Sequence record: PQ818763
Reading direction: 5' to 3' (one strand)
Source of the DNA: Shigella phage ShigP1
DNA length: 64,000 bases
The position numbers and the translations under genes are program-made. Shown here piece after piece: positions 48,124-64,000 of this stretch (its first letter is position 1; every line of letters begins with the position of its first letter). Under the pieces are notes generated by a model. It made no database searches and was not told the DNA's origin. It worked only from the letters and a program-made list of their open reading frames with translations.

Positions 48124-48942
48124 TTACCAAGATTTATCTAACCATGTCCAGTCGAACAGGTCTTCCGGAGTCTGACCAACAAAGAGCAGCCGAGCATTCT
48201 CAAGCATCTTCTCTTCATCTTCAGTATCGAACTTCTTATAATATTCCATTCGTACTATATGATACATGGTCCACTTATCTGTAACACCAGCCAATAGTTT
48301 AGCTGCTGCTTTCTTCCCTATTCCTTGACGTCGAAGCTGGAGCTTACCACCCCACATAACTTCTTCACGTTCTCCACATCCGGGGATATTATCTGTACCA
48401 TCTCCAATCAACATTTGATAGAAGAAGTTTTGCCATGAAACTAAATCAGATACATAGTGAGGAGGAACCTCTTTCTGTCTTTCTCCACAAGCCCAACGGT
48501 AGTGCCATCCGGGAGTTATCAACAAATCCTTGTCTCTAGTACAGATGATAGTGTTTTTATCCCTACGTTGCCTTTCAGCTAGTGCATCATCAGCCTCTCT
48601 CCCAAATACATCTATGTATTCATATTTACCTTTAATGTAATCACCAACATTTTGCCAGTGAAAAGGTCTTTCTCCGGGAGGTCTGTTTGCCTTGTAGTCT
48701 TGCTGCTTAGCAACATCAAAACGGAAATTACCACCTTCGCTGAAGTAGAACACAACCTTACTACAACCTGATCGAGCTATGATTGTATCAATCTTATACT
48801 GAAGTCGTTCAATCATGAAATTGTAATCAACTGGAACACGTCCTGTGTCAAGAAAGGGATGCTCCTGAGTAAGAGCACCCACTTCATATCGAAGAACGTC
48901 AGCATCCACTATAGCTACCTCAGGGAGCTTAACGTCTTCCAT
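48124..48942 (-). CDS. 5'-3' exonuclease / flap endonuclease
   Basis: Acidic clusters DADVLRY, DDALAE, TRDKDLL and helix-hairpin-helix LIGDGTDNIPGCGE...GKKAAAKLL. Confidence 0.7.
   Translation of the reverse strand: MEDVKLPEVAIVDADVLRYEVGALTQEHPFLDTGRVPVDYNFMIERLQYKIDTIIARSGCSKVVFYFSEGGNFRFDVAKQQDYKANRPPGERPFHWQNVGDYIKGKYEYIDVFGREADDALAERQRRDKNTIICTRDKDLLITPGWHYRWACGERQKEVPPHYVSDLVSWQNFFYQMLIGDGTDNIPGCGEREEVMWGGKLQLRRQGIGKKAAAKLLAGVTDKWTMYHIVRMEYYKKFDTEDEEKMLENARLLFVGQTPEDLFDWTWLDKSW

Positions 48943-49470: not shown

Positions 49471-49480
<10 letters not shown>
48944..49480 (-). CDS. DUF3310-like protein
   Basis: C-terminal GGAHYNPESKIIQPVEFYHANPQLNFQQTNMIKYAYRHKDKNKVQDLLKVVHYAL matches the DUF3310 pattern as recalled. 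Confidence 0.4.
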
Positions 49481-50966
<1,486 letters not shown>

Positions 50967-50967
<1 letters not shown>

Positions 50968-51227
50968 TATTCTATTCCACGCTCTTTCAGAGCTTCTAAC
51001 AATCCATTGTGATTGGCAGCACATTCTGTGTACTGGTCCTGATACCACTCCAACGTAGTGGCTAATGCTTTTCCTTGAGCACTTTCTAAAAGAGGCAGGT
51101 CAACCCTACATTCAGCTTTTAGGTTTGTTGGTAAGGGCATTGATTGCCTGCTGTTGTCGCTCGTTGAACAAGCTGACATACTCATCACTAGCGCAGACAT
51201 TATAAAAAACTGGTTTAGTTTTCTCAT
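50967..51227 (-). CDS. putative o-spanin (Rz1-like outer-membrane lipoprotein)
   Basis: Signal peptide MRKLNQFFIMSALVMSMSAC with lipobox-like SAC; Pro-containing mature part; starts inside the i-spanin candidate in another frame and extends past its stop. Confidence 0.45.
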
Positions 51228-51519: not shown

Positions 51520-52266
51520 TTAGAATGGGCTATCGTTGTCGTCTTCGTAAGTAGAAGCAGGCTCTTTATCAATCGTAGGGATTGAAGGAGTAGCTTCTTT
51601 CTGCTCTGTTTCAGAAGCACGAGTAATTTCACGACCAGCCAGAGGCATGTTCTTAGCGTCATTAGCTTGAGTAAGCAGGTTGCGCTGGAACGGGAACATC
51701 AGTTGATAGGATGCTACGTTCTCATCGGTTTCAGCATACGGTTCGAAGAATACCAGAGGACTACGAGCTTCACCAACTGCTGCACGATATTTGGTTGGGA
51801 TTGGAGAAATGGTCTTGATGGAGTTTTTAACTTCACCAGATTTGTTAGTATAAGAGTTAACCAGAATGTTAACAGGCTGACCTAACAGAACATCCTTGAA
51901 CCAAGACAGATCACCTTTCAGTGCTTGAATACTTGGGTCAATCATTTTGCAAAGATCAAGAATACCAGAGTTCTTAGCTCGTGGGTTTACATCATAGCTC
52001 TTGAACTGGCAAGCTGGACGTGGTTCTAATGCCTTACCATCGGAATCTTTACCAGTAGCATCAACACCAATCAGCTCGAAAGCTAAATCCATACGGAAAG
52101 CCGGATTCTTAGGAGTTACTGCTTTGGTCTTCGGGTCAATCCAAGGGTCACGATTGTGAACACCCAAACCTACTACACGAACGATACGTGCTTCGTATTC
52201 ACCATCAGGGATTACATCGTAGTTGGATTTACGGGAAGCAGTTGCGATAGTTGGAATCATAGACAT
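51520..52266 (-). CDS. putative single-stranded DNA-binding protein
   Basis: C-terminal acidic tail YEDDNDSPF resembles the SSB tail DDDIPF; N-terminal fold not assessed. Confidence 0.4.
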   Translation of the reverse strand: MSMIPTIATASRKSNYDVIPDGEYEARIVRVVGLGVHNRDPWIDPKTKAVTPKNPAFRMDLAFELIGVDATGKDSDGKALEPRPACQFKSYDVNPRAKNSGILDLCKMIDPSIQALKGDLSWFKDVLLGQPVNILVNSYTNKSGEVKNSIKTISPIPTKYRAAVGEARSPLVFFEPYAETDENVASYQLMFPFQRNLLTQANDAKNMPLAGREITRASETEQKEATPSIPTIDKEPASTYEDDNDSPF

Positions 52267-54418: not shown

Positions 54419-54613
54419 TCACTCTACCAATGCAGGTACTTCTATCATTTTAACTGTGAATGTCTTGTTTGGAAACTTTCGAACTAGCTCTGCTGCTTTG
54501 GTTATTGCTAAGTTCTCTGTCTCAAAGATACACAGTTGACCATTTAACGCTACGAGAGTGGAGCCACCACTGAAGACGGCCCAAGATTCATAATAACCAC
54601 GAACACTCATCAC
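54419..54613 (-). CDS. hypothetical protein (64 aa)
   Basis: ORF track; overlaps the upstream stop. Confidence 0.35.
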   Translation of the reverse strand: MMSVRGYYESWAVFSGGSTLVALNGQLCIFETENLAITKAAELVRKFPNKTFTVKMIEVPALVE

Positions 54614-54978
54614 TCAACCTCAATATTATATAGAGTTTTCAGTGTATCTTTAATCCAAGCACGTCGTTTTGGATTCTTATGATGTGCCCCGTTTTCCCTA
54701 TCTCTAAAATATTGATCACATCCGAATGGGTATGTTGGGTCAAAAAACTTTTCTTGATTAAACATATTCTTCATGTCGTCAATATCTAAATGCTTTGTGA
54801 AATAGTAATACCTCTTATAACAGCGAAAGTTGAAGCATAATCCTTGATCTTCACTAAACCATTTTGGATAAATTCCAGTCTTAGCTATTTCATAATATTG
54901 GAGGAGGAAATCCTCCATCCCCCTCTCTTTAGCTAAACATCTCAATGTTCTGTAGATGATATTGGTTTCTTTCATCAC
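54610..54978 (-). CDS. hypothetical protein (122 aa)
   Basis: ORF track; immediately downstream of the polymerase gene. Confidence 0.45.
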   Translation of the reverse strand: MMKETNIIYRTLRCLAKERGMEDFLLQYYEIAKTGIYPKWFSEDQGLCFNFRCYKRYYYFTKHLDIDDMKNMFNQEKFFDPTYPFGCDQYFRDRENGAHHKNPKRRAWIKDTLKTLYNIEVE

Positions 54979-54983
54979 TCACC

Positions 54984-56828
54984 TTAGTGTGTATGCATCC
55001 AGTTAAGTCCAATCTGACAATCAGATGCCAGAGGACATTCCATATTCAGATACTCGCCAGCTTTCTTAACACAAAGCTCGGTGTGCTCTTTGAGTTTCTG
55101 TACATCATTACGGTTTACTGAGAATTGACCTTCATCGTGCATATCAATTACCTTAGCACAACGAACCTTATCTTTCTCAATCCACTTGTTAAGGAACATC
55201 ATAGCATATTTCATAACAACAGCACCAGCACATTGCAGGAGTGTGTTAAGGGCTTTATGAACCATAACCTTACCAGTGGCATCCCGTCTCATTGTAATCT
55301 TACGACCATCAACTCCAATCAAGTATCCTTGAGCAGCTTTCTCTGTCATACGATCAATGAGGATTGCAATACATGGGTTCTCTGCTAAGAAACGTGCTCG
55401 CATCACTGAACCTTCGTCAGCCCCACCACCTACAATTGAACCAAGCTTAGCATCACCAGCACCATAGTTGAATGCGTAGATAAACGTCTTAGCGTTGTCA
55501 CGAGTAGGAAGACCAGCAAGTTTCTGGTTGTGGGAGTGGATATCACCTTCAAGGAGAATATCACGATACATAATAGCAGAAGCTAAACCACGTTCTGCCA
55601 GAGCTTTCTTAGCTGGGTTGTTCTCTTCAATTGCCTCAGCAAGCATATCCCTACACTCTTTAATGAGGTAGTGAGCGAGCATACGAAGTTCAAGTCCAGA
55701 ACCATCATACCCTAAGAATACTTCTTTACCAGCGGGTATGTAATATTTGTAAGCACCTATAGGTTTATCTTTCTTCCCCGGCTTACCTTTCTCGTAAATT
55801 ACGTTAGTACCTTTTCGTATATAACAACCATCAGGAACAACGTTAGTAATAACGAAAGGACGAGAGTGATCACTGTCTGAGTTATAGTCAGACTCAAACA
55901 GACTGCGACACTCGTGACCAAACAAACCACGGGAGGGAATATTAACCACGATACGATGTTTGAATCGAAAAGTCGGCGTAGCGCAGCTGTTAGCTTCTGC
56001 CGAAAGTTTACCATCTTCGCGTTCCTTTGCTATGAGTCCACTGATAAGACCTAGCCTGTGAGCCGCTACAACGCGTCTCTTAAGCAAACTTCCAACACTC
56101 CCTAGTTCACCCCCTAGCCCTTCTTCAAGAGTCTCCTCGAGGTTTGTAGGAGCTGTAGGCCACTTGTTTGATGTGGCTAATGCTTTCTTAATCTCATCAA
56201 ACGTTACAGGATTACGGCGATTAGGGTTCAATCCCAAACCAAACACGTAAGCTTTCATGTAGTTCTTAGTTTTAAACCTGAAGTGCTTTTCTAAGAACTT
56301 CTTAATATCAGCGTCAACCATCTCGGCTGTCTGCTTTTGCTTAGCATTGCCTCGCATCCAAGCAGTATACCATGCTTGGTATGTTCCATACTTTCTCATA
56401 TCTTTCTTAATTTCGAAAGTATTCCAAGGCTTCTTAGATACGTTAAACTCTGGAGGAAGAAAGCCCTCATCCATAAGAGCTTCTTTAACTCGTGCATCCT
56501 TCGATGGGTCAAAGTCTACATATTCGACACAGGTGAAAGCTCCACCAATGTCTTCTCTCTTCAGTCCAACCCTATCACAATAAGCTTGAGGCCACTTCTG
56601 CAAAGCCCCTGACTTCTTAAATGGCTTCATGTAAGTAGAGCCATCTAATCTCATCTTAGGTAAGAGAGGAATCAACTCTCTGTCAATATTAACAATAATC
56701 TCTTTAAGGAGGTGAACATACCACCGAGCATTTCTTCGGTTGAAACTCACTCCGTGCTTTGCTTGCTTAGAGATTATATCAGCGACAGTCATCTCTGTCA
56801 AAAATGGAAGAGCGTCCGGGTTGCTCAC
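54984..56828 (-). CDS. DNA polymerase, family A (T7-like), polymerase domain only
   Basis: Motif A DGSGLELR, motif B RDNAKTFIYAFNYGAG, motif C MHDE; C-terminal third alignable with T7 gp5 as recalled (GVDGRK..., KALNTLLQCAGA); no Exo I/II/III motifs in the N-terminal 250 aa. Confidence 0.8.
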   Translation of the reverse strand: MSNPDALPFLTEMTVADIISKQAKHGVSFNRRNARWYVHLLKEIIVNIDRELIPLLPKMRLDGSTYMKPFKKSGALQKWPQAYCDRVGLKREDIGGAFTCVEYVDFDPSKDARVKEALMDEGFLPPEFNVSKKPWNTFEIKKDMRKYGTYQAWYTAWMRGNAKQKQTAEMVDADIKKFLEKHFRFKTKNYMKAYVFGLGLNPNRRNPVTFDEIKKALATSNKWPTAPTNLEETLEEGLGGELGSVGSLLKRRVVAAHRLGLISGLIAKEREDGKLSAEANSCATPTFRFKHRIVVNIPSRGLFGHECRSLFESDYNSDSDHSRPFVITNVVPDGCYIRKGTNVIYEKGKPGKKDKPIGAYKYYIPAGKEVFLGYDGSGLELRMLAHYLIKECRDMLAEAIEENNPAKKALAERGLASAIMYRDILLEGDIHSHNQKLAGLPTRDNAKTFIYAFNYGAGDAKLGSIVGGGADEGSVMRARFLAENPCIAILIDRMTEKAAQGYLIGVDGRKITMRRDATGKVMVHKALNTLLQCAGAVVMKYAMMFLNKWIEKDKVRCAKVIDMHDEGQFSVNRNDVQKLKEHTELCVKKAGEYLNMECPLASDCQIGLNWMHTH

Positions 56829-56844
56829 TTTATACTCCTTTAAA

Positions 56845-57258
56845 TTATTGGTAAAGTAAATCTGTAAATGCTTGGTTATCTTCTACTACATCCAAGGATG
56901 TGGAATCAACAGCATATGTTCTCATTGCTGCATTTGTTTGTGCCCAAGTAGGTGGAGAATAAGAAGACCTAACCTCACGAGGCTGCTCTCTGACTAGATG
57001 GGCCACAACCCTCTGATTAGCAACTTCTTCTCTTTCTCTAATAGCCCTCTGGATATAGGCCAGCTTCATGCCCCAAGCTTCTTCAAACTCTTGAGGATGC
57101 TTATCACTGATAACCACATACTGACGTTCAGGAATACCAGAGCGAATCTCTGATAATAACTCATGGAATAAATCTAGTTCATGTTCAGTGAGATTCATTT
57201 CAATATCATCCCACTTAAGAACTAGGAAACGGTTTTGGTGTCTAGCTGGTAATGGCAT
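56845..57258 (-). CDS. hypothetical protein (137 aa)
   Basis: ORF track only. Confidence 0.45.
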   Translation of the reverse strand: MPLPARHQNRFLVLKWDDIEMNLTEHELDLFHELLSEIRSGIPERQYVVISDKHPQEFEEAWGMKLAYIQRAIREREEVANQRVVAHLVREQPREVRSSYSPPTWAQTNAAMRTYAVDSTSLDVVEDNQAFTDLLYQ

Positions 57259-57421
57259 TCTACTCCACCTCTACTTCAATGTAAGTTCTCTCGCCAACGT
57301 CATCTTTTAAGACCCATGCCTTGGCATCTTCTTCAGACTTAAAAGCTTTCACAACGCTGTATCCCCCTTCCCATTCATCACCGACCCAGCGCTGTCCTAC
57401 GTAAATGTATTCTTTCATCAC

Positions 57422-57706
57422 TCAACCTTTCGGGAATGGCATTAAAAACTCTACAGCAGATTTGATTTCGTTATTGATTCGTGAATCACGGTAAGAGATA
57501 AACTTACCTTTGCTGTCACGTAACATCACATGGGTTCTGGCTGTTTTGTGAGGAAGCAAAGTGATACTGGTTGGTATAGTATCAATTCCTACAGAGCATG
57601 AATTAATAGTCTTACTCTCTACTAGCAGATAAGACCAAGTACGCGGTTTCTGCTCCGGACGGTTGGGGTATGTGTCTCGAATCTGTACCATAGCTAACTT
57701 ATTCAT
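57422..57706 (-). CDS. small protein, paralog pair 2 (C-terminal PFPKG)
   Basis: Shares KTARTxVxLR...GKFISY...PFPKG with 57708-57962. Confidence 0.5.
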   Translation of the reverse strand: MNKLAMVQIRDTYPNRPEQKPRTWSYLLVESKTINSCSVGIDTIPTSITLLPHKTARTHVMLRDSKGKFISYRDSRINNEIKSAVEFLMPFPKG

Positions 57707-57707
57707 G

Positions 57708-57962
57708 TTAAACTCCTTTAGGGAATGGGATGAGATTTTCTACTGCAACACGGAAAGATTTTTCTACATCTTTGTTTTTATAAGAAATGAATTTACCATC
57801 AGCACCACGAAGGATTACATTAGTGCGAGCTGTTTTTGGGTTAATCTCAATCATCCGTTCGATGATCTTGTTTGATTTGTTGTGGTGGTTAGTGAAAGTC
57901 CACTTAACAATCTTGCCATCTCTGGTTACATCAAAAATATTTACGATTTTTACAATAGACAT
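57708..57962 (-). CDS. small protein, paralog pair 2 (C-terminal PFPKG)
   Basis: Shares KTARTxVxLR...GKFISY...PFPKG with 57422-57706. Confidence 0.5.
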   Translation of the reverse strand: MSIVKIVNIFDVTRDGKIVKWTFTNHHNKSNKIIERMIEINPKTARTNVILRGADGKFISYKNKDVEKSFRVAVENLIPFPKGV

Positions 57963-58030
57963 ATTTATTACCTAAGAAGTTTATTTTGGTTTATATAAAA
58001 GAAAAGGCCACCCATTTGGGTAGCCTCATA

Positions 58031-58348
58031 TTACGATGAGCTTAAAGCCCCTTTGCGTGCTCCAGCTGCTTTTCCAGCTCGATCACCACTTTTGCCGCCG
58101 TTTGAACGGTTTGAGCTGACTGATTCAACACGTAAGTTGCTTGACGCATTAGAGCCTCCAGACTTGACAGCTCGTTTGTGTCCAACATCTTTACCTCTGA
58201 CAGCAGCTTTTCCATCGCGCTTTTCAACGATGCGACGTGCACGGTGGCGCTGAGCATCTCCGCTCTTGCTCCCAACGCCTGTTTCACCACGGGCAATTGC
58301 GGTACGTCTTTCTTGTGCATAATCTCTCTTTCCTACATGGTCTGCCAT
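58031..58348 (-). CDS. basic low-complexity protein, possible nucleic-acid binder
   Basis: Strong AAGGAG Shine-Dalgarno 6 nt before the ATG; Arg/Lys/Gly/Ser-rich; preferred over overlapping 58042-58320. Confidence 0.5.
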   Translation of the reverse strand: MADHVGKRDYAQERRTAIARGETGVGSKSGDAQRHRARRIVEKRDGKAAVRGKDVGHKRAVKSGGSNASSNLRVESVSSNRSNGGKSGDRAGKAAGARKGALSSS

Positions 58349-58404
58349 TTAGAACTCCTTAATATATCAGTGTACACTAAGGAGTATACATTATAAGTTA
58401 CTGT

Positions 58405-59142
58405 TTAAGCTTTCTTTTCCATTGCTTTAACAATCGCCTTACAGAAACCAGAACGAACAATATCATCTGATTCACCATCTACAATCTCAGCAAACTCATA
58501 CAGATCGTGTTCATCAATAAAGTTAGTAGCCCAAGTTAGACCACTCTCTCGACCACGCATATCATGCTGGTTTGTATCACCCATACAGAACAATTGAGAG
58601 GTTTCTCCCAATCGAGTCATGATGGAGAAGGCTTCATCCTTAGTTGTATTCTGGAACTCATCTACGATAACAATGGCATCATTGAAAGAGCGACCACGGA
58701 GATATTCCAGAGGTACAAATTCAATGTTACCATTTCCGATTTGGCATTCATAGAATCCCTTACCGTATCGCTGAGTAATAACATCAATGATAGGCATCAG
58801 GTATGGTTCAAACTTCTCACGCATTCCTCCCGGAAGTAACCCAAGAGAGTTACCCATGCCAACTGAAGGTCGACTCAGGATGATCTTCTGAATCTTACCA
58901 CTCTTCAGTGCATCGATAACCGTGGAAGTGATTACAAAGGTCTTACCACAGCCCGCAGGAGCGTCTGTGAACACAACTTGTTTAGTCTTAATAGCATTGA
59001 GTAGCTCAGACTGAAACTGGTTCTGAGGGACTACAGGCTTTGCTAAAACCACCTCTTCATACTCTCGCTTACCTTTACGAGTAACAAGTGCTTCCCGACG
59101 AAGGTCTTTCCGTGATTCTTTCCGTGATTGACGACGACTCAT
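58405..59142 (-). CDS. phoH: PhoH-like ATPase
   Basis: Walker A APAGCGKTF; Walker B IVIVDEFQN; typical PhoH length. Confidence 0.7.
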   Translation of the reverse strand: MSRRQSRKESRKDLRREALVTRKGKREYEEVVLAKPVVPQNQFQSELLNAIKTKQVVFTDAPAGCGKTFVITSTVIDALKSGKIQKIILSRPSVGMGNSLGLLPGGMREKFEPYLMPIIDVITQRYGKGFYECQIGNGNIEFVPLEYLRGRSFNDAIVIVDEFQNTTKDEAFSIMTRLGETSQLFCMGDTNQHDMRGRESGLTWATNFIDEHDLYEFAEIVDGESDDIVRSGFCKAIVKAMEKKA

Positions 59143-59324
59143 TTACGCTCTCCAATTTCTTCGTAATGACATTCAGTAGTTAAACAATCTTTACAGATTG
59201 CTGTGTAAACCCTGACGTTAGTAAATCGTTTGTTCTTCCCTTTGGTTGGAGAGCCTTTAGCAAGCTCTCTGATAACCTTGTTACTTAAGTGAAGGTTTGT
59301 CCCTTCACATCTAGAGCACTTCAT
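59139..59324 (-). CDS. small zinc-ribbon protein
   Basis: CSRCEG...CKDC motifs. Confidence 0.4.
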   Translation of the reverse strand: MKCSRCEGTNLHLSNKVIRELAKGSPTKGKNKRFTNVRVYTAICKDCLTTECHYEEIGERK

Positions 59325-59640
59325 GGTTCATATCTTTATGAAGTCTATAAACAGCTGTCGCCATACAAGCAACAGCTTCATTATGCGGGAGATGCATACC
59401 TGTAGAACCATCCCAATCCCTGAACTCATTGTCAAAGACTCCGGTAGGCTCTTGATACAAGGCTTGCAACTCCACTAGATCATTAGCAACTTGTTGCCAT
59501 TTATCATCAGACCAGATAGGGTCATCCAACCAGTAATACAAATAGGAATGGATGATCAATTGCCTTCTGTGCCGATTAATTACTTCAGCGGGACTTATCT
59601 CACTTCCATTTGAAGTCCTAAATGTATTACTGTCAATCAT
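59311..59640 (-). CDS. hypothetical protein (109 aa)
   Basis: ORF track only. Confidence 0.4.
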   Translation of the reverse strand: MIDSNTFRTSNGSEISPAEVINRHRRQLIIHSYLYYWLDDPIWSDDKWQQVANDLVELQALYQEPTGVFDNEFRDWDGSTGMHLPHNEAVACMATAVYRLHKDMNHEVL

Positions 59641-59891
59641 TTCACAACCTTAAATTTGAATGTTGTTGGGTGATAATAATGCAACCTGTTGATGGTGTGC
59701 TTGATTTCAAGGTATGTCCTACAGGAGTGGCACATAACATGAGACAAACCAGTCACAGGATTGGGCTTAAAATTGATGATAGGCTTCTCTTTCTTACAGA
59801 AGCTACAGACTTTCTTTTCCATCTTTTCTCCAGTGGTCAACGAATTGCTGAAACACTTTATGGTCGAATGTGAAACCTCGAGCAATCCCAC
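59637..59891 (-). CDS. small zinc-finger-like protein
   Basis: CSFCKK...CHSC motifs. Confidence 0.4.
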   Translation of the reverse strand: MGLLEVSHSTIKCFSNSLTTGEKMEKKVCSFCKKEKPIINFKPNPVTGLSHVMCHSCRTYLEIKHTINRLHYYHPTTFKFKVVK

Positions 59892-60036
59892 ACTCTACGA
59901 AAGTAGAAGGCATATAGTCTACATCATCTTTAGATGTATGACCATAAACTTGAATAAGCTTTTTAATCTTATCCTTCTCTCTTCGAGGAAGCATTCTAAA
60001 TGCCTCCTGAATATCTGTAATATGTTTGATTTTCAT
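59803..60036 (-). CDS. hypothetical protein (77 aa)
   Basis: ORF track; overlaps the previous ORF in another frame. Confidence 0.3.
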   Translation of the reverse strand: MKIKHITDIQEAFRMLPRREKDKIKKLIQVYGHTSKDDVDYMPSTFVECGIARGFTFDHKVFQQFVDHWRKDGKESL

Positions 60037-60052
60037 CAGAAAGCCTCTGATA

Positions 60053-60709
60053 TTAACTCTCCAAAGTTTTCTTCAGAGCTGCCCACGAGATTGGGTAGAG
60101 TTTAGCCATCTCTTCATCTAGAGATTTAGCAAACACTCGAACTTCATATTGAGCGTGAGAGGAGAGTCGCTGACGACACAACTCAAACCAGCCGTACAAA
60201 GAACCGGTCCACACCCACTCAGTGATCATCCCCTGAGGAAGAACAAATCGAGCTTGCTCTGGTGCAATAAATTCAATCAACTTGTCATATGCTGCTAGAG
60301 AAGCTTCATATGAATCGTTAATCAGCATTAATGCTTCAGCTCGCTCTCCGTCGATGAGTTGAACCCCTGAACCTGCATGGAGGTCCGAAGGTCTCGCAAA
60401 AATCTCTTTAGGGATGAAGACTTCAACTGCTCCATCTTTATACCGCCGGGACATTTCGTTCCACGAGAATCCAACCTGATGCTTCTGTAGTTGACGAGCG
60501 ATTGCAATTGGAGCCTTACAACGAAAGGACACTTGTGGATGACGGAACGGAGTGCAGTGTTTCTCTCTAGCCAAGAAGTTAATCAGCCGAGTATCACGAT
60601 CATTCAAATCACCCTCTCGTACAACACCAAAAGAAACTCTTGCAGCATTAACAACAGTTTTATCACTGCCCATAGCTTCAATCAATGTTGCTTGCAATTG
60701 TTCATTCAT
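60053..60709 (-). CDS. thyX: flavin-dependent thymidylate synthase (ThyX)
   Basis: ThyX signature RHxxVSF...SxNEMSRRY. Confidence 0.75.
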   Translation of the reverse strand: MNEQLQATLIEAMGSDKTVVNAARVSFGVVREGDLNDRDTRLINFLAREKHCTPFRHPQVSFRCKAPIAIARQLQKHQVGFSWNEMSRRYKDGAVEVFIPKEIFARPSDLHAGSGVQLIDGERAEALMLINDSYEASLAAYDKLIEFIAPEQARFVLPQGMITEWVWTGSLYGWFELCRQRLSSHAQYEVRVFAKSLDEEMAKLYPISWAALKKTLES

Positions 60710-61181
60710 ACTTCAACTTCTCCTTGTTATAAGCAATCTCTGCTTCTTCTGGAGTATGGAAAGTTCCTAAATGCTTAGTCTTTCCGTTAACTCCGATGAT
60801 AGCTCTGAATTTTGTACCACTAGCCGTCTCTCTGATGTAAACACCCATTGGGAGTTTTCCAGCTTTTCCGGCTCTGTTGTATTGTTTTCTGTTATGACAG
60901 TTTGTAGATGGGTCAACATCTCTTAGGTTTTTAAGAGAGTCATCCAGTTTAATCTGGTTGATGTGATCAATCTCAAACTCAGGCATCTTTCCATAAGAGA
61001 AAAACCAAGCTAATCGACATGCTCTGTAAGATTTCCCTTCATAATAGATGTACCTGTAGCCTAATGTTGAGATACACCCAGCAATATTCCCTGATACTCT
61101 CCGACCTTTAGTGTTCTTCCACCTAAAGATTCCAGTATCAGGGTCATATGCTAGGTCTTCTTTTATCTTATCAGTTAACAC
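60702..61181 (-). CDS. HNH homing endonuclease with C-terminal AP2 DNA-binding domain
   Basis: EIDHINQIKLDDSLKNLR...CHN (HNH_3-like) and GVYIRETASGTKFRAIIGVNGKTKHLGTFHTPEEA (AP2-like); free-standing between the thioredoxin and thyX genes. Confidence 0.65.
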   Translation of the reverse strand: MLTDKIKEDLAYDPDTGIFRWKNTKGRRVSGNIAGCISTLGYRYIYYEGKSYRACRLAWFFSYGKMPEFEIDHINQIKLDDSLKNLRDVDPSTNCHNRKQYNRAGKAGKLPMGVYIRETASGTKFRAIIGVNGKTKHLGTFHTPEEAEIAYNKEKLKYE

Positions 61182-61446
61182 CTAAAGCTGTATCCAAAAA
61201 TGCTTTCAGGTTTGCTTCGGTTTGCATACCAGAGAGGCTATAGTGTGCACCACTGTTACGGTTAGGTACAACGAAAGCAGGGATGCTACGAACCCCGTAC
61301 TTAACAGCTTGTTCACGACCATCACCTTCAAGGATGTTAATCTCTTCCACTTCTACATCAAACTCCTTAACAACCTTCTCAAAGGTAGGAGCCATTGCTT
61401 TACATGGAGCACACTGATCGCTATAAAACTTAATTACTTTAGACAT
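61171..61446 (-). CDS. thioredoxin-like protein
   Basis: CAPC active site and cis-Pro motif SIPAFVV; 91 aa. Confidence 0.6.
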   Translation of the reverse strand: MSKVIKFYSDQCAPCKAMAPTFEKVVKEFDVEVEEINILEGDGREQAVKYGVRSIPAFVVPNRNSGAHYSLSGMQTEANLKAFLDTALGVN

Positions 61447-61695
61447 GTAAATCCTTATGCAGTCAGGAGGTGAAGCAGGAATGGGATAACAACAGCTACG
61501 ATAACCATGACAGTTGATGCTGTTTGAATCTCACCTTTCTTATCAGGAGTTTCTTCAATAAGCTTACCAGAAGCCCAATAAATACCACCACCAATAAAGA
61601 TAGCCCAAATACCCCATACGATTGCTGATAACATATATCTATATCCTTATAAATAAGTTCGCCCCACCTCGGGTTAGGAGACAGGGCGGAGGTTT

Positions 61696-62307
61696 TTAGT
61701 AAGACACGTCACCACTTGAATGGGACATGTTGCTCTTGACGAAGTAGCAATACTTGCCAAGACCTTCATTTATTTCTTGAAGCATACTCTGGTCAACTGG
61801 ATAAGTGGCTAAATCGCCATCAAACTCATCCATCTTCTCAATAATACACATCAATGTCATGCACATATCAGAGAGCATACCGTCCATGTCTAGATCAGCA
61901 TTACCCTCTGAGAACCAAGCATGAGATAGGTAGTTAGCTGCTGTAGCGTCCACTTTAACACAGTGGTAACGCATACGTTCAGCAATACGATCTCCTACTT
62001 GTCGTGCGTAATCTTCCAGCTCATCAAACATACCATGAACACCCTGAAATCCTGAACCAGAGACGTTCCAGTGGTAGTTTTTAGCTTTGATATGCAAGAG
62101 TTCCATGTTAGCTTGTAAGCAGCTCAGGATGTGTTCTAGGCTGTTTCCACTAATCATACCTTGCATCGTTTCAAGGCGAGAGATTGATAGGTCGGACCGG
62201 TCTAACATATTGTAGCTGTCACGACCAATCTCAGGTAAATCAAAGACATTCTTATGCATTTGGGTTTTCTCCATCAAGTTCAACTGAGTTAGCAACGTTA
62301 CGTGCAA
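61696..62307 (-). CDS. Dps-like ferritin-superfamily protein
   Basis: YHWNVSGSGFQGVHGMFDE and DRIAERM match the Dps ferroxidase-site pattern. Confidence 0.55.
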   Translation of the reverse strand: MHVTLLTQLNLMEKTQMHKNVFDLPEIGRDSYNMLDRSDLSISRLETMQGMISGNSLEHILSCLQANMELLHIKAKNYHWNVSGSGFQGVHGMFDELEDYARQVGDRIAERMRYHCVKVDATAANYLSHAWFSEGNADLDMDGMLSDMCMTLMCIIEKMDEFDGDLATYPVDQSMLQEINEGLGKYCYFVKSNMSHSSGDVSY

Positions 62308-62581
62308 TATTATCCATTACCTGCTGGGTAATTACGATGCAGTTCTGTGGGTCTACTGACTTAGAACGCCCCATTTCAGGGTCATACACCTTAACTCGCT
62401 TAGCAGTTGAACCTGTAACCTGAAGAACCTTCAACAGATACCCCTGATTACCAATAGACCAAGCAACAACATCACGATTCTTGATAAAGCGACCAAGCAT
62501 ATCACGATGATAAAACTGTTGCATCACCTTGGATTTTGTAATCTCTTCAGTGGGCGGGGCCACTTTACTCAAATCTAACAT
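62252..62581 (-). CDS. hypothetical protein (109 aa)
   Basis: ORF track only. Confidence 0.4.
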   Translation of the reverse strand: MLDLSKVAPPTEEITKSKVMQQFYHRDMLGRFIKNRDVVAWSIGNQGYLLKVLQVTGSTAKRVKVYDPEMGRSKSVDPQNCIVITQQVMDNIARNVANSVELDGENPNA

Positions 62582-63812: not shown

Positions 63813-64000
63813 TTAGTTATTTGTTTCCATGTCAAAAGAGATTCCACGACCCGCTTCATCGGCAAACCGAACTGTACGGGTTTGAGGTTCTAATACTTCA
63901 GGGTTGTTAGCAATAAAGCGATCAGCGAGACTATCTCCCAAATCTTGTTCCATACCTTCATCAGTCCAGATAACACGAGAAGGGGCGTTGATATCACCAA
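63813..64000 (-). CDS. hypothetical protein, partial (N-terminus beyond window end)
   Basis: Hand translation open from 64000 to TAA at 63813-63815 (...RGISFDMETNN*). Confidence 0.35.
   Translation of the reverse strand, partial: GDINAPSRVIWTDEGMEQDLGDSLADRFIANNPEVLEPQTRTVRFADEAGRGISFDMETNN

Follow-up and report, generated by a model that had tools for sequence, protein, structure and literature searches.

The polymerase half of a probable two-gene T7-type DNA polymerase and a small thioredoxin of proposed redox function in the phiEco32-like Shigella phage ShigP1

We analyzed a 64,000-nucleotide stretch of the Shigella phage ShigP1 genome (sequence record PQ818763; hereafter the window), concentrating on the gene for a T7-like DNA polymerase and on a small thioredoxin gene 4.3 kb upstream of it and in the same orientation. 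The window belongs to a phiEco32-like coliphage (Kuravirus, Gordonclarkvirinae): its polymerase open reading frame (ORF), 54984-56828(-), is 99.7% identical at the protein level to phiEco32 gp53 (phi32_53), polymerases at least 99% identical to it occur in 40 deposited phages including phiEco32, SU10 and Bas90/91, and the 12-kb stretch around the gene shares ~95-96% nucleotide identity with the best-matching phage records. The features on which the analysis turns are the following, where TBD stands for the thioredoxin-binding domain of T7 DNA polymerase (gp5):

54984..56828, minus strand: polymerase subunit of a split T7-type family A enzyme, 614 aa, GTG start, homolog of phiEco32 gp53, comprising thumb, palm and fingers only
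56514..56675, minus strand: half-length TBD-like insertion between thumb helices H and H1, codons for residues ~52-105 (from alignments and the AlphaFold2 model)
56121..56426, minus strand: family-specific helical thumb insertion after helix H1, codons for residues ~135-236, roughly 85-100 residues
61171..61446, minus strand: thioredoxin, 91 aa, CAPC active site, minimal fold, homolog of phiEco32 gp65 (phi32_65), Pfam Thioredoxin E 1.3e-13
63813..64000, minus strand: 3' end of a nucleotidyltransferase gene (phi32_73 homolog), inside which the window ends

By its motifs, a diagnostic tyrosine, its sequence and its fold, the polymerase is a member of the T7-like family A DNA polymerases (PolA cluster 5 / cd08643), as an original prediction for this locus had held. 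Pfam matches DNA_pol_A only (residues 361-611, E 2.5e-23), and the closest solved relative by sequence is T7 gp5 (phmmer E 1.2e-32, vs. 1.5e-6 for Klenow), with polymerase residues 63-135, 269-337 and 421-614 aligning to gp5 residues 289-357, 404-475 and 490-698, respectively. An AlphaFold2 model computed with 71 homologues as input reached a predicted local distance difference test score (pLDDT) of 92.5 and a predicted template modelling score (pTM) of 0.81; when this model was searched with Foldseek, the top matches were all T7 gp5 entries (E 1.8e-26), with Bst and Taq polymerases at ~1e-15. Our two polymerase alignments, A1 and A2, both conserve motif A (GYDGSGLELR), motif B (RDNAKTFIYAFNYGAG), motif C (MHDE) and the C-terminal His, and in A2 residues D374, R442, K446, Y450, H563 and H613 are invariant while D564 is present in at least 90% of sequences. 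Motif B also carries the equivalent of T7 Y526, with polymerase KTFIYAFNYGAG standing opposite T7 KTFIYGFLYGAG; a Tyr at this third position of the motif is specific to the T7 clade (PMC10201439). When IMG/VR was scanned with the polymerase alignment, most matches were to distant marine phages of T7-like type and were confined to the C-terminal third; four loci were informative (L015, L017, L018 and L080; L numbers are our labels for compared loci).

The same polypeptide has no exonuclease domain, again as predicted: no exonuclease profile from Pfam or PHROGs matched the ORF, and when 19 sequences, T7 gp5 among them, are aligned, the protein starts at about T7 residue 205-214, in the linker between exonuclease and polymerase domains, right after the exonuclease domain. 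The phiEco32 RefSeq label for phi32_53 reads "DNA polymerase; lacks 5'-3' and 3'-5' exonuclease domains". The N-terminal 250 residues, for which the original prediction had reported an absence of exonuclease motifs, indeed contain none, but they are not a separate unassigned or lost domain; they form the thumb, made up of a TBD-like segment (residues ~52-105) and the helical insertion (residues ~135-236). The latter has no counterpart in T7 gp5 and is shorter in LUZ24-like relatives. The ORFs flanking the polymerase (56845-57258 and 54610-54978) were examined for a hidden exonuclease and set aside, neither having a Pfam match or an informative PHROG match.

The TBD-like segment measures ~52 aa and lacks T7 residues 258-283, compared with a full-length T7 TBD that spans residues 258-333. 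In the AlphaFold2 model it folds as a strand (58-65), a helix (77-86) and a second strand (97-103), with pLDDT ~90. Among the T7 gp5 residues known to contact thioredoxin (PMC5984650), E319, T327, V329 and E330, which touch thioredoxin K90, I75 and R73, have retained equivalents in the HMMER alignment, so that four of the six gp5-side interface positions tallied (Y265, E319, P325, T327, V329, E330) are kept. On the side of the phage thioredoxin, R73 and I75 are kept, with I72 replaced by V, G74 by S, K90 by L and A93 by M.

Proofreading, which the original prediction had left as either absent or supplied in trans, is most probably supplied in trans, judging by the relatives examined, all of which encode a separate exonuclease subunit; the same evidence does not support its absence. 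In phiEco32 this subunit is phi32_74 (gp74), annotated as 'DNA polymerase exonuclease subunit', a 185-aa protein with motifs FDIES, HNIIDFD and YCEQD of the Exo I/II/III type (DxE, NxxxFD, YxxxD) that matches T7 gp5 residues 3-178 (E 2.4e-13) and Pfam DNA_pol_A_exo1 (E 6e-9). Genes for both the exonuclease and the polymerase subunit were present in 10/10 relatives scanned, representing 8 lineages (phiEco32, Bas90, GAP52, ECO319P1, 7-11, Proteus 3H10_20, Aeromonas LAh_6, Vibrio Vp_R1, the E. coli phage PJNS034 and the LUZ24-like phage 'clash', with ECBP2, whose compared stretch stops short of the exonuclease position, outside the count), and exonuclease subunits in the relatives examined were 164-187 aa long. 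Among Escherichia-phage records, 98 contain the exonuclease subunit and 95 the polymerase. Within the 64-kb window we found no homologue of either the exonuclease subunit or the primase-helicase (best tblastn E 0.9 and 0.41, respectively). The gene order in phiEco32 and Bas90 is dCTP deaminase, nucleotidyltransferase, exonuclease subunit, primase-helicase; as the window stops in the nucleotidyltransferase gene, the neighbour of the exonuclease gene in both phages, we expect the ShigP1 exonuclease gene ~1.3 kb past the window end. The search beyond the window that had been suggested for a separate exonuclease thus led to a homolog of the gp5 exonuclease domain in every relative scanned.

The two subunits also fit end to end. 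On the PHROG_17 polymerase profile the exonuclease subunit covers positions 667-826 and the window polymerase 836-1233, and these consecutive stretches identify the proteins as two adjoining pieces of one ancestral enzyme. When aligned by eye, the exonuclease C-terminus (..GFDPYDPPSLYWKM) corresponds to about T7 residues 190-200 (..HYFPPEIDF), which places the break in the interdomain linker. An exonuclease-less polymerase with a separate proofreading subunit is already known from the RefSeq annotation of phiEco32 and from earlier reports: the split was described for the LUZ24 group and phiEco32 (PMC3517423) and later called "common to all group members" of the Kuravirus-like phages (PMC9965538).

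Comparison with other systems shows how this arrangement relates to T7 and to other split polymerases. T7 gp5 with E. coli thioredoxin shares with the window phage motifs A, B and C, the Y526-type Tyr, the C-terminal His, the C-terminal half of the TBD and replisome partners with acidic, aromatic-ended tails, but T7 carries its exonuclease domain in the same polypeptide, has a full-length TBD (76 aa) and relies on the host for thioredoxin, whereas the window phage has its exonuclease in a separate gene, a TBD ~25 residues shorter, an additional helical thumb insertion and a minimal thioredoxin of its own. LUZ24-like phages (Bruynoghevirus), whose genes are labelled 'DNA polymerase part I / part II', show the same split at the exonuclease-polymerase linker, the same order of primase-helicase, exonuclease, interval and polymerase, and a TBD-like segment with ~39% identity; they differ in having a 1.6 kb interval of small ORFs with neither thioredoxin nor nucleotide-metabolism cargo, and a polymerase ~70 residues shorter, with a smaller thumb insertion and without the 28-residue insert after motif A. 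The split PolA of S-SBP1-like cyanophages (Czernecki et al. 2023, PMC10201439) likewise has its exonuclease and polymerase parts in separate genes and a TBD about halved, but it arose by a recent, independent frameshift fission that left adjacent overlapping genes, and the AlphaFold2 model of both products superposes on an intact polymerase (PMC10201439). The phiEco32-type halves, in contrast, lie 1.6-19 kb apart in different lineages, and for this reason the phiEco32-type split appears older and independent.

Interruptions of the polymerase gene were seen in several close relatives. In ECBP2 (L014 8995-11174), LAMP, Bas94 and KBNP1711 the match to the gene falls into two parts, with a gene for a homing endonuclease or endonuclease VII between them close to the 3' end, an arrangement that looks intron- or intein-like; the window polymerase is uninterrupted. 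An intron has been reported in the LUZ24 polymerase gene (PMC3517423).

The second gene of interest encodes a genuine thioredoxin-fold protein with a CAPC site, as the original prediction had proposed. Pfam PF00085 scores it at 51.3 bits against a cutoff of 23.5, its residues 3-87 align with E. coli thioredoxin 24-107 at 26% identity, and the cis-Pro76 lies in a ..RSIPA.. motif. Since the protein starts at E. coli residue 24, it lacks the N-terminal strand 1 and helix 1 of E. coli TrxA, and it also departs from the classical fold at the buried D26, which is Lys, and at W31, replaced by Gln here and by S, T or N in orthologs. Across orthologs of ~40% identity C[AS]PC, R73, cis-Pro76 and G92 are invariant, while G74, K90 and A93, which are T7-interface positions, vary.

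Clear thioredoxin orthologues were found by tblastn in 127 phage records, nearly all of them enterobacterial C3 (elongated-head) phages, including 93 from Escherichia, 8 from Proteus, 7 from Salmonella and 6 from Cronobacter. A custom hidden Markov model (HMM) combined with Pfam additionally recovered one small thioredoxin-fold ORF in each of two other phages: in PJNS034 (CGPC) it lies 1.9 kb upstream of the polymerase, and in LAh_6 (CVNC) ~1 kb from nrdAB, with two intervening genes and away from the polymerase. These two had been absent or marginal in single-query phmmer searches, and with their detection we dropped the notion that the thioredoxin had been 'lost twice' in the clade. The same HMM and Pfam searches found no thioredoxin-fold ORF in Vp_R1 (102 of 112 kb scanned) or in LUZ24-like phages. 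In Proteus phage 3H10_20 the thioredoxin (L008 10110-10403) is annotated from an internal Met as a 68-aa protein with the CSPC cut off; the ORF runs further upstream and takes in the CSPC, so the deposited start is probably wrong.

The thioredoxin gene lies in the space between the two polymerase halves, which varies widely in length across the group: 1.6 kb of small ORFs in a LUZ24-like phage (L005 16625-18268), ~8 kb in Kuravirus (L001 12009-20001) and Grimontviridae phages and ~19 kb in Vp_R1 (L013 1-19393 plus L012). The larger intervals hold genes for dCTP deaminase, ThyX, PhoH, MazG, NrdD/G, a Dps-like protein and thioredoxin, and the space behaves as a cargo hot spot that gathers nucleotide-metabolism genes. 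A split polymerase bracketing 1.6 to 19 kb of variable cargo makes these phages a convenient natural system for studies of exonuclease-polymerase reassembly. In the window this interval includes:

60053..60709, minus strand: ThyX flavin-dependent thymidylate synthase, between the exonuclease and polymerase genes
60702..61181, minus strand: HNH (PF13392) homing-endonuclease-type ORF, overlapping both the thioredoxin gene (at its end) and ThyX (at its start), not found at this position in phiEco32
61696..62307, minus strand: Dps/ferritin-like 'DNA-binding protein', phi32_67 homolog
62252..62581, minus strand: conserved hypothetical protein, phi32_68 homolog, adjoining the thioredoxin directly in Grimontviridae relatives and in L015
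63270..63803, minus strand: dCTP deaminase, part of the nucleotide-metabolism cargo between the exonuclease and polymerase genes

Gene order and neighbours, including thioredoxin gp65, ThyX, PhoH and dCTP deaminase, are the same as around phiEco32 gp53/gp74; the window differs in its additional HNH endonuclease ORF between thioredoxin and ThyX and in that its exonuclease gene falls outside the analyzed stretch. As the phiEco32 thioredoxin and ThyX genes are just 15 bp apart, we regard the HNH ORF as a mobile insertion. Wherever it is found, the thioredoxin gene sits among dCTP deaminase, PhoH, ThyX, Nrd and Dps-like genes, its constant neighbours being those for dCTP deaminase, the gp68-like protein and the Dps/ferritin-like protein.

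We consider it somewhat probable that the locus encodes the polymerase subunit of a two-gene T7-type replicase of a phiEco32-like Kuravirus, with the thioredoxin serving as a redox auxiliary rather than an obligatory polymerase subunit. Under this scenario an ancestral gp5-like gene would have split in the linker between its exonuclease and polymerase domains, leaving an exonuclease half (~185 aa) that is expected beside the primase-helicase gene, a short way past the window end and ~8 kb upstream from the polymerase, and an interval that would have filled with nucleotidyltransferase, dCTP deaminase, Dps-like protein, thioredoxin, ThyX and PhoH genes. The exonuclease and polymerase proteins would then reassemble into a proofreading polymerase, and this polymerase may work in a T7-style replisome together with a gp4-like primase-helicase, an OB-fold single-stranded DNA-binding protein (SSB) with a gp2.5-like tail and a separate 5'-3' exonuclease. 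The thioredoxin would most likely be a redox-active auxiliary of the nucleotide-metabolism cargo, for instance an electron donor to a host or phage ribonucleotide reductase (RNR) or to another reductase. For the thioredoxin itself, a redox role in deoxynucleoside triphosphate (dNTP) supply or in another reductive step is, in our estimate, the better-than-even reading.

Phage thioredoxins of comparable type are known. T4 NrdC is a phage-encoded thioredoxin of nucleotide metabolism and a small redox-active CxxC protein, and the Syn5 thioredoxin, also small, redox-active and of CxxC type, has its gene among those for replication and nucleotide metabolism; the Kuraviruses differ from both in having no phage RNR as a redox client. 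The Syn5 phage thioredoxin boosts DNA replication, and AlphaFold3 places the host thioredoxin, not that of the phage, on the TBD (preprint 10.1101/2025.10.05.680603).

Several observations weigh against a redox auxiliary. Kuraviruses encode no RNR, yet all of them retain the thioredoxin; were its role tied to RNR alone, it would have to work through host NrdAB, which is already served by TrxA and Grx1, and there is no obvious phage-encoded redox client. Further points of this kind also speak for the strongest alternative, namely that the thioredoxin is a dedicated processivity subunit that binds the shortened TBD-like thumb segment as E. coli TrxA binds T7 gp5, giving a replicase independent of host thioredoxin: the insertion stands at the TBD position with its four contact-residue equivalents conserved, the gene belongs to the same middle-gene cluster and lies between the polymerase halves, the thioredoxin is kept in every enterobacterial C3 phage whether or not it encodes an RNR, and the more distant E. 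coli phage PJNS034 has its small thioredoxin 1.9 kb upstream of the polymerase. The same alternative can draw on the conserved thioredoxin equivalents of R73, I75, P76 and G92 and on the lack of an RNR of the Kuraviruses' own, and a thioredoxin-processivity hypothesis for this phage group was already put forward in the 2021 Privateer paper (PMC7881722).

We nevertheless regard a dedicated processivity factor, one of the two roles offered by the original prediction, as an unlikely explanation. No member of the polymerase family has the T7 'backwards loop' (258-283), which bears Y265 and the lysines that contact DNA. In Vp_R1 and the LUZ24-like phages, in which no thioredoxin-fold ORF was found, the TBD-like segment is of equal length, has the same motifs and is indistinguishable from that of the thioredoxin-encoding phages; being alike with and without a phage thioredoxin, it gives no sign of co-adaptation. 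Both cysteines of the phage thioredoxin are invariant, whereas T7-type processivity is redox-independent, and the nucleotide-metabolism neighbourhood, too, speaks for the redox auxiliary. At the interface, orthologs have S, Q, N or A in place of G74, a residue whose substitution G74D does away with binding in T7, and Kuraviruses have Leu in place of K90. The LAh_6 thioredoxin gene is found near nrdAB and not near the polymerase. Predicted structures of other systems point the same way, as AlphaFold2 gave no complex between half-TBD split polymerases and host thioredoxin (PMC10201439) and for Syn5 the prediction does not put the phage thioredoxin on the TBD (preprint 10.1101/2025.10.05.680603).

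A literature search on the trxA dependence of Kuraviruses returned no papers, and the literature searched reported no experiments on 1:1 binding of phage thioredoxin and polymerase or on thioredoxin-dependent processivity. We give a low probability to the conjecture that in C3-type podophages the minimal CAPC thioredoxin is a processivity subunit docked on the half-length TBD, forming a three-gene replicase (polymerase, exonuclease and thioredoxin) free of host TrxA; if it holds, demonstrating it would make these the first viruses shown to provide a thioredoxin clamp of their own. Should the TBD-like segment bind a thioredoxin at all, TrxA of the host is no less plausible a candidate.

A further alternative, which we rate slightly lower still, groups the thioredoxin with the Dps/ferritin-like and gp68-like proteins in an oxidative-stress, iron or DNA-protection module apart from both dNTP supply and the polymerase. 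The three genes are neighbours in Kuravirus, Crifsvirus, Moazamivirus, Privateervirus and IMG/VR contig L015 (window 61171-62581(-); L004 12142-13123; L007 8774-11065; L008 10110-11169; L015 3464-4050), all three were among the few genes common to the five C3 phages sequenced at the time (PMC4281155), and all three proteins were seen by mass spectrometry in SU10 preparations (PMC4281155). However, LAh_6 has the gp68-like and Dps-like pair without an adjacent thioredoxin, gp68 has no Pfam match, and adjacency within a cargo hot spot is weak evidence. Finally, the idea that the polymerase replicates without proofreading, ShigP1 having no exonuclease partner, could appeal to the absence of any exonuclease-subunit domain or homolog in the 64-kb window, but it is very improbable given an exonuclease-subunit gene in every relative examined and the position of that gene in phiEco32 and Bas90 just past the equivalent of the window end, with the window itself ending in the gene that precedes it.

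Neither the split polymerase nor the thioredoxin-processivity idea is new, and the phiEco32 annotation (2008) already includes the polymerase, the exonuclease subunit and the thioredoxin. As these components have also been discussed in later papers, the locus carries little weight as a discovery.

On the other side of the polymerase gene, the window encodes two further candidate replication proteins:

48124..48942, minus strand: separate 5'-3' exonuclease, FEN-like, 272 aa, homolog of phiEco32 gp33 (Pfam 5_3_exonuc_N E 6.5e-6, under the curated cutoff; phi32_33 annotation)
51520..52266, minus strand: OB-fold SSB-like protein whose C-terminus is an acidic tail (...DDNDSPF) similar to that of T7 gp2.5

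The SSB-like protein ends in an invariant acidic tail, ..DDDxPF, and the primase-helicases of the same phages combine an acidic stretch with an aromatic end (..KPF, ..SPW or ..RVY); the loci compared were window 51520-52266(-), L001 9668-11458, L004, L005, L006, L007, L008, L009 and L012. These ends mirror the T7 tails, ..DEDGDF in gp2.5 and ..SNDTDF in gp4. In the LUZ24-like phage 'clash' the SSB-like protein and the primase-helicase both end in -PI, and this lineage-wise co-variation suggests that the two tails may share a docking site on the polymerase; we infer that they would dock there as in T7.

We also noted a few further genes. One of them, 59311-59640(-), encodes a 109-aa stand-alone protein whose match to NAD-dependent DNA ligase is confined to the N-terminal Ia (NAD+-binding) domain (Pfam Nlig-Ia E 3.6e-34), a product labelled 'DNA ligase' in databases though far too short for a ligase. 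Immediately downstream of the replication genes lie a homologue of an ECF-type sigma factor (phiEco32 gp36; 49860-50507(-)), a macro-domain (Appr-1-p processing) protein (50527-51048(-)) and a SLOG/YspA-like protein (49471-49863(-)).

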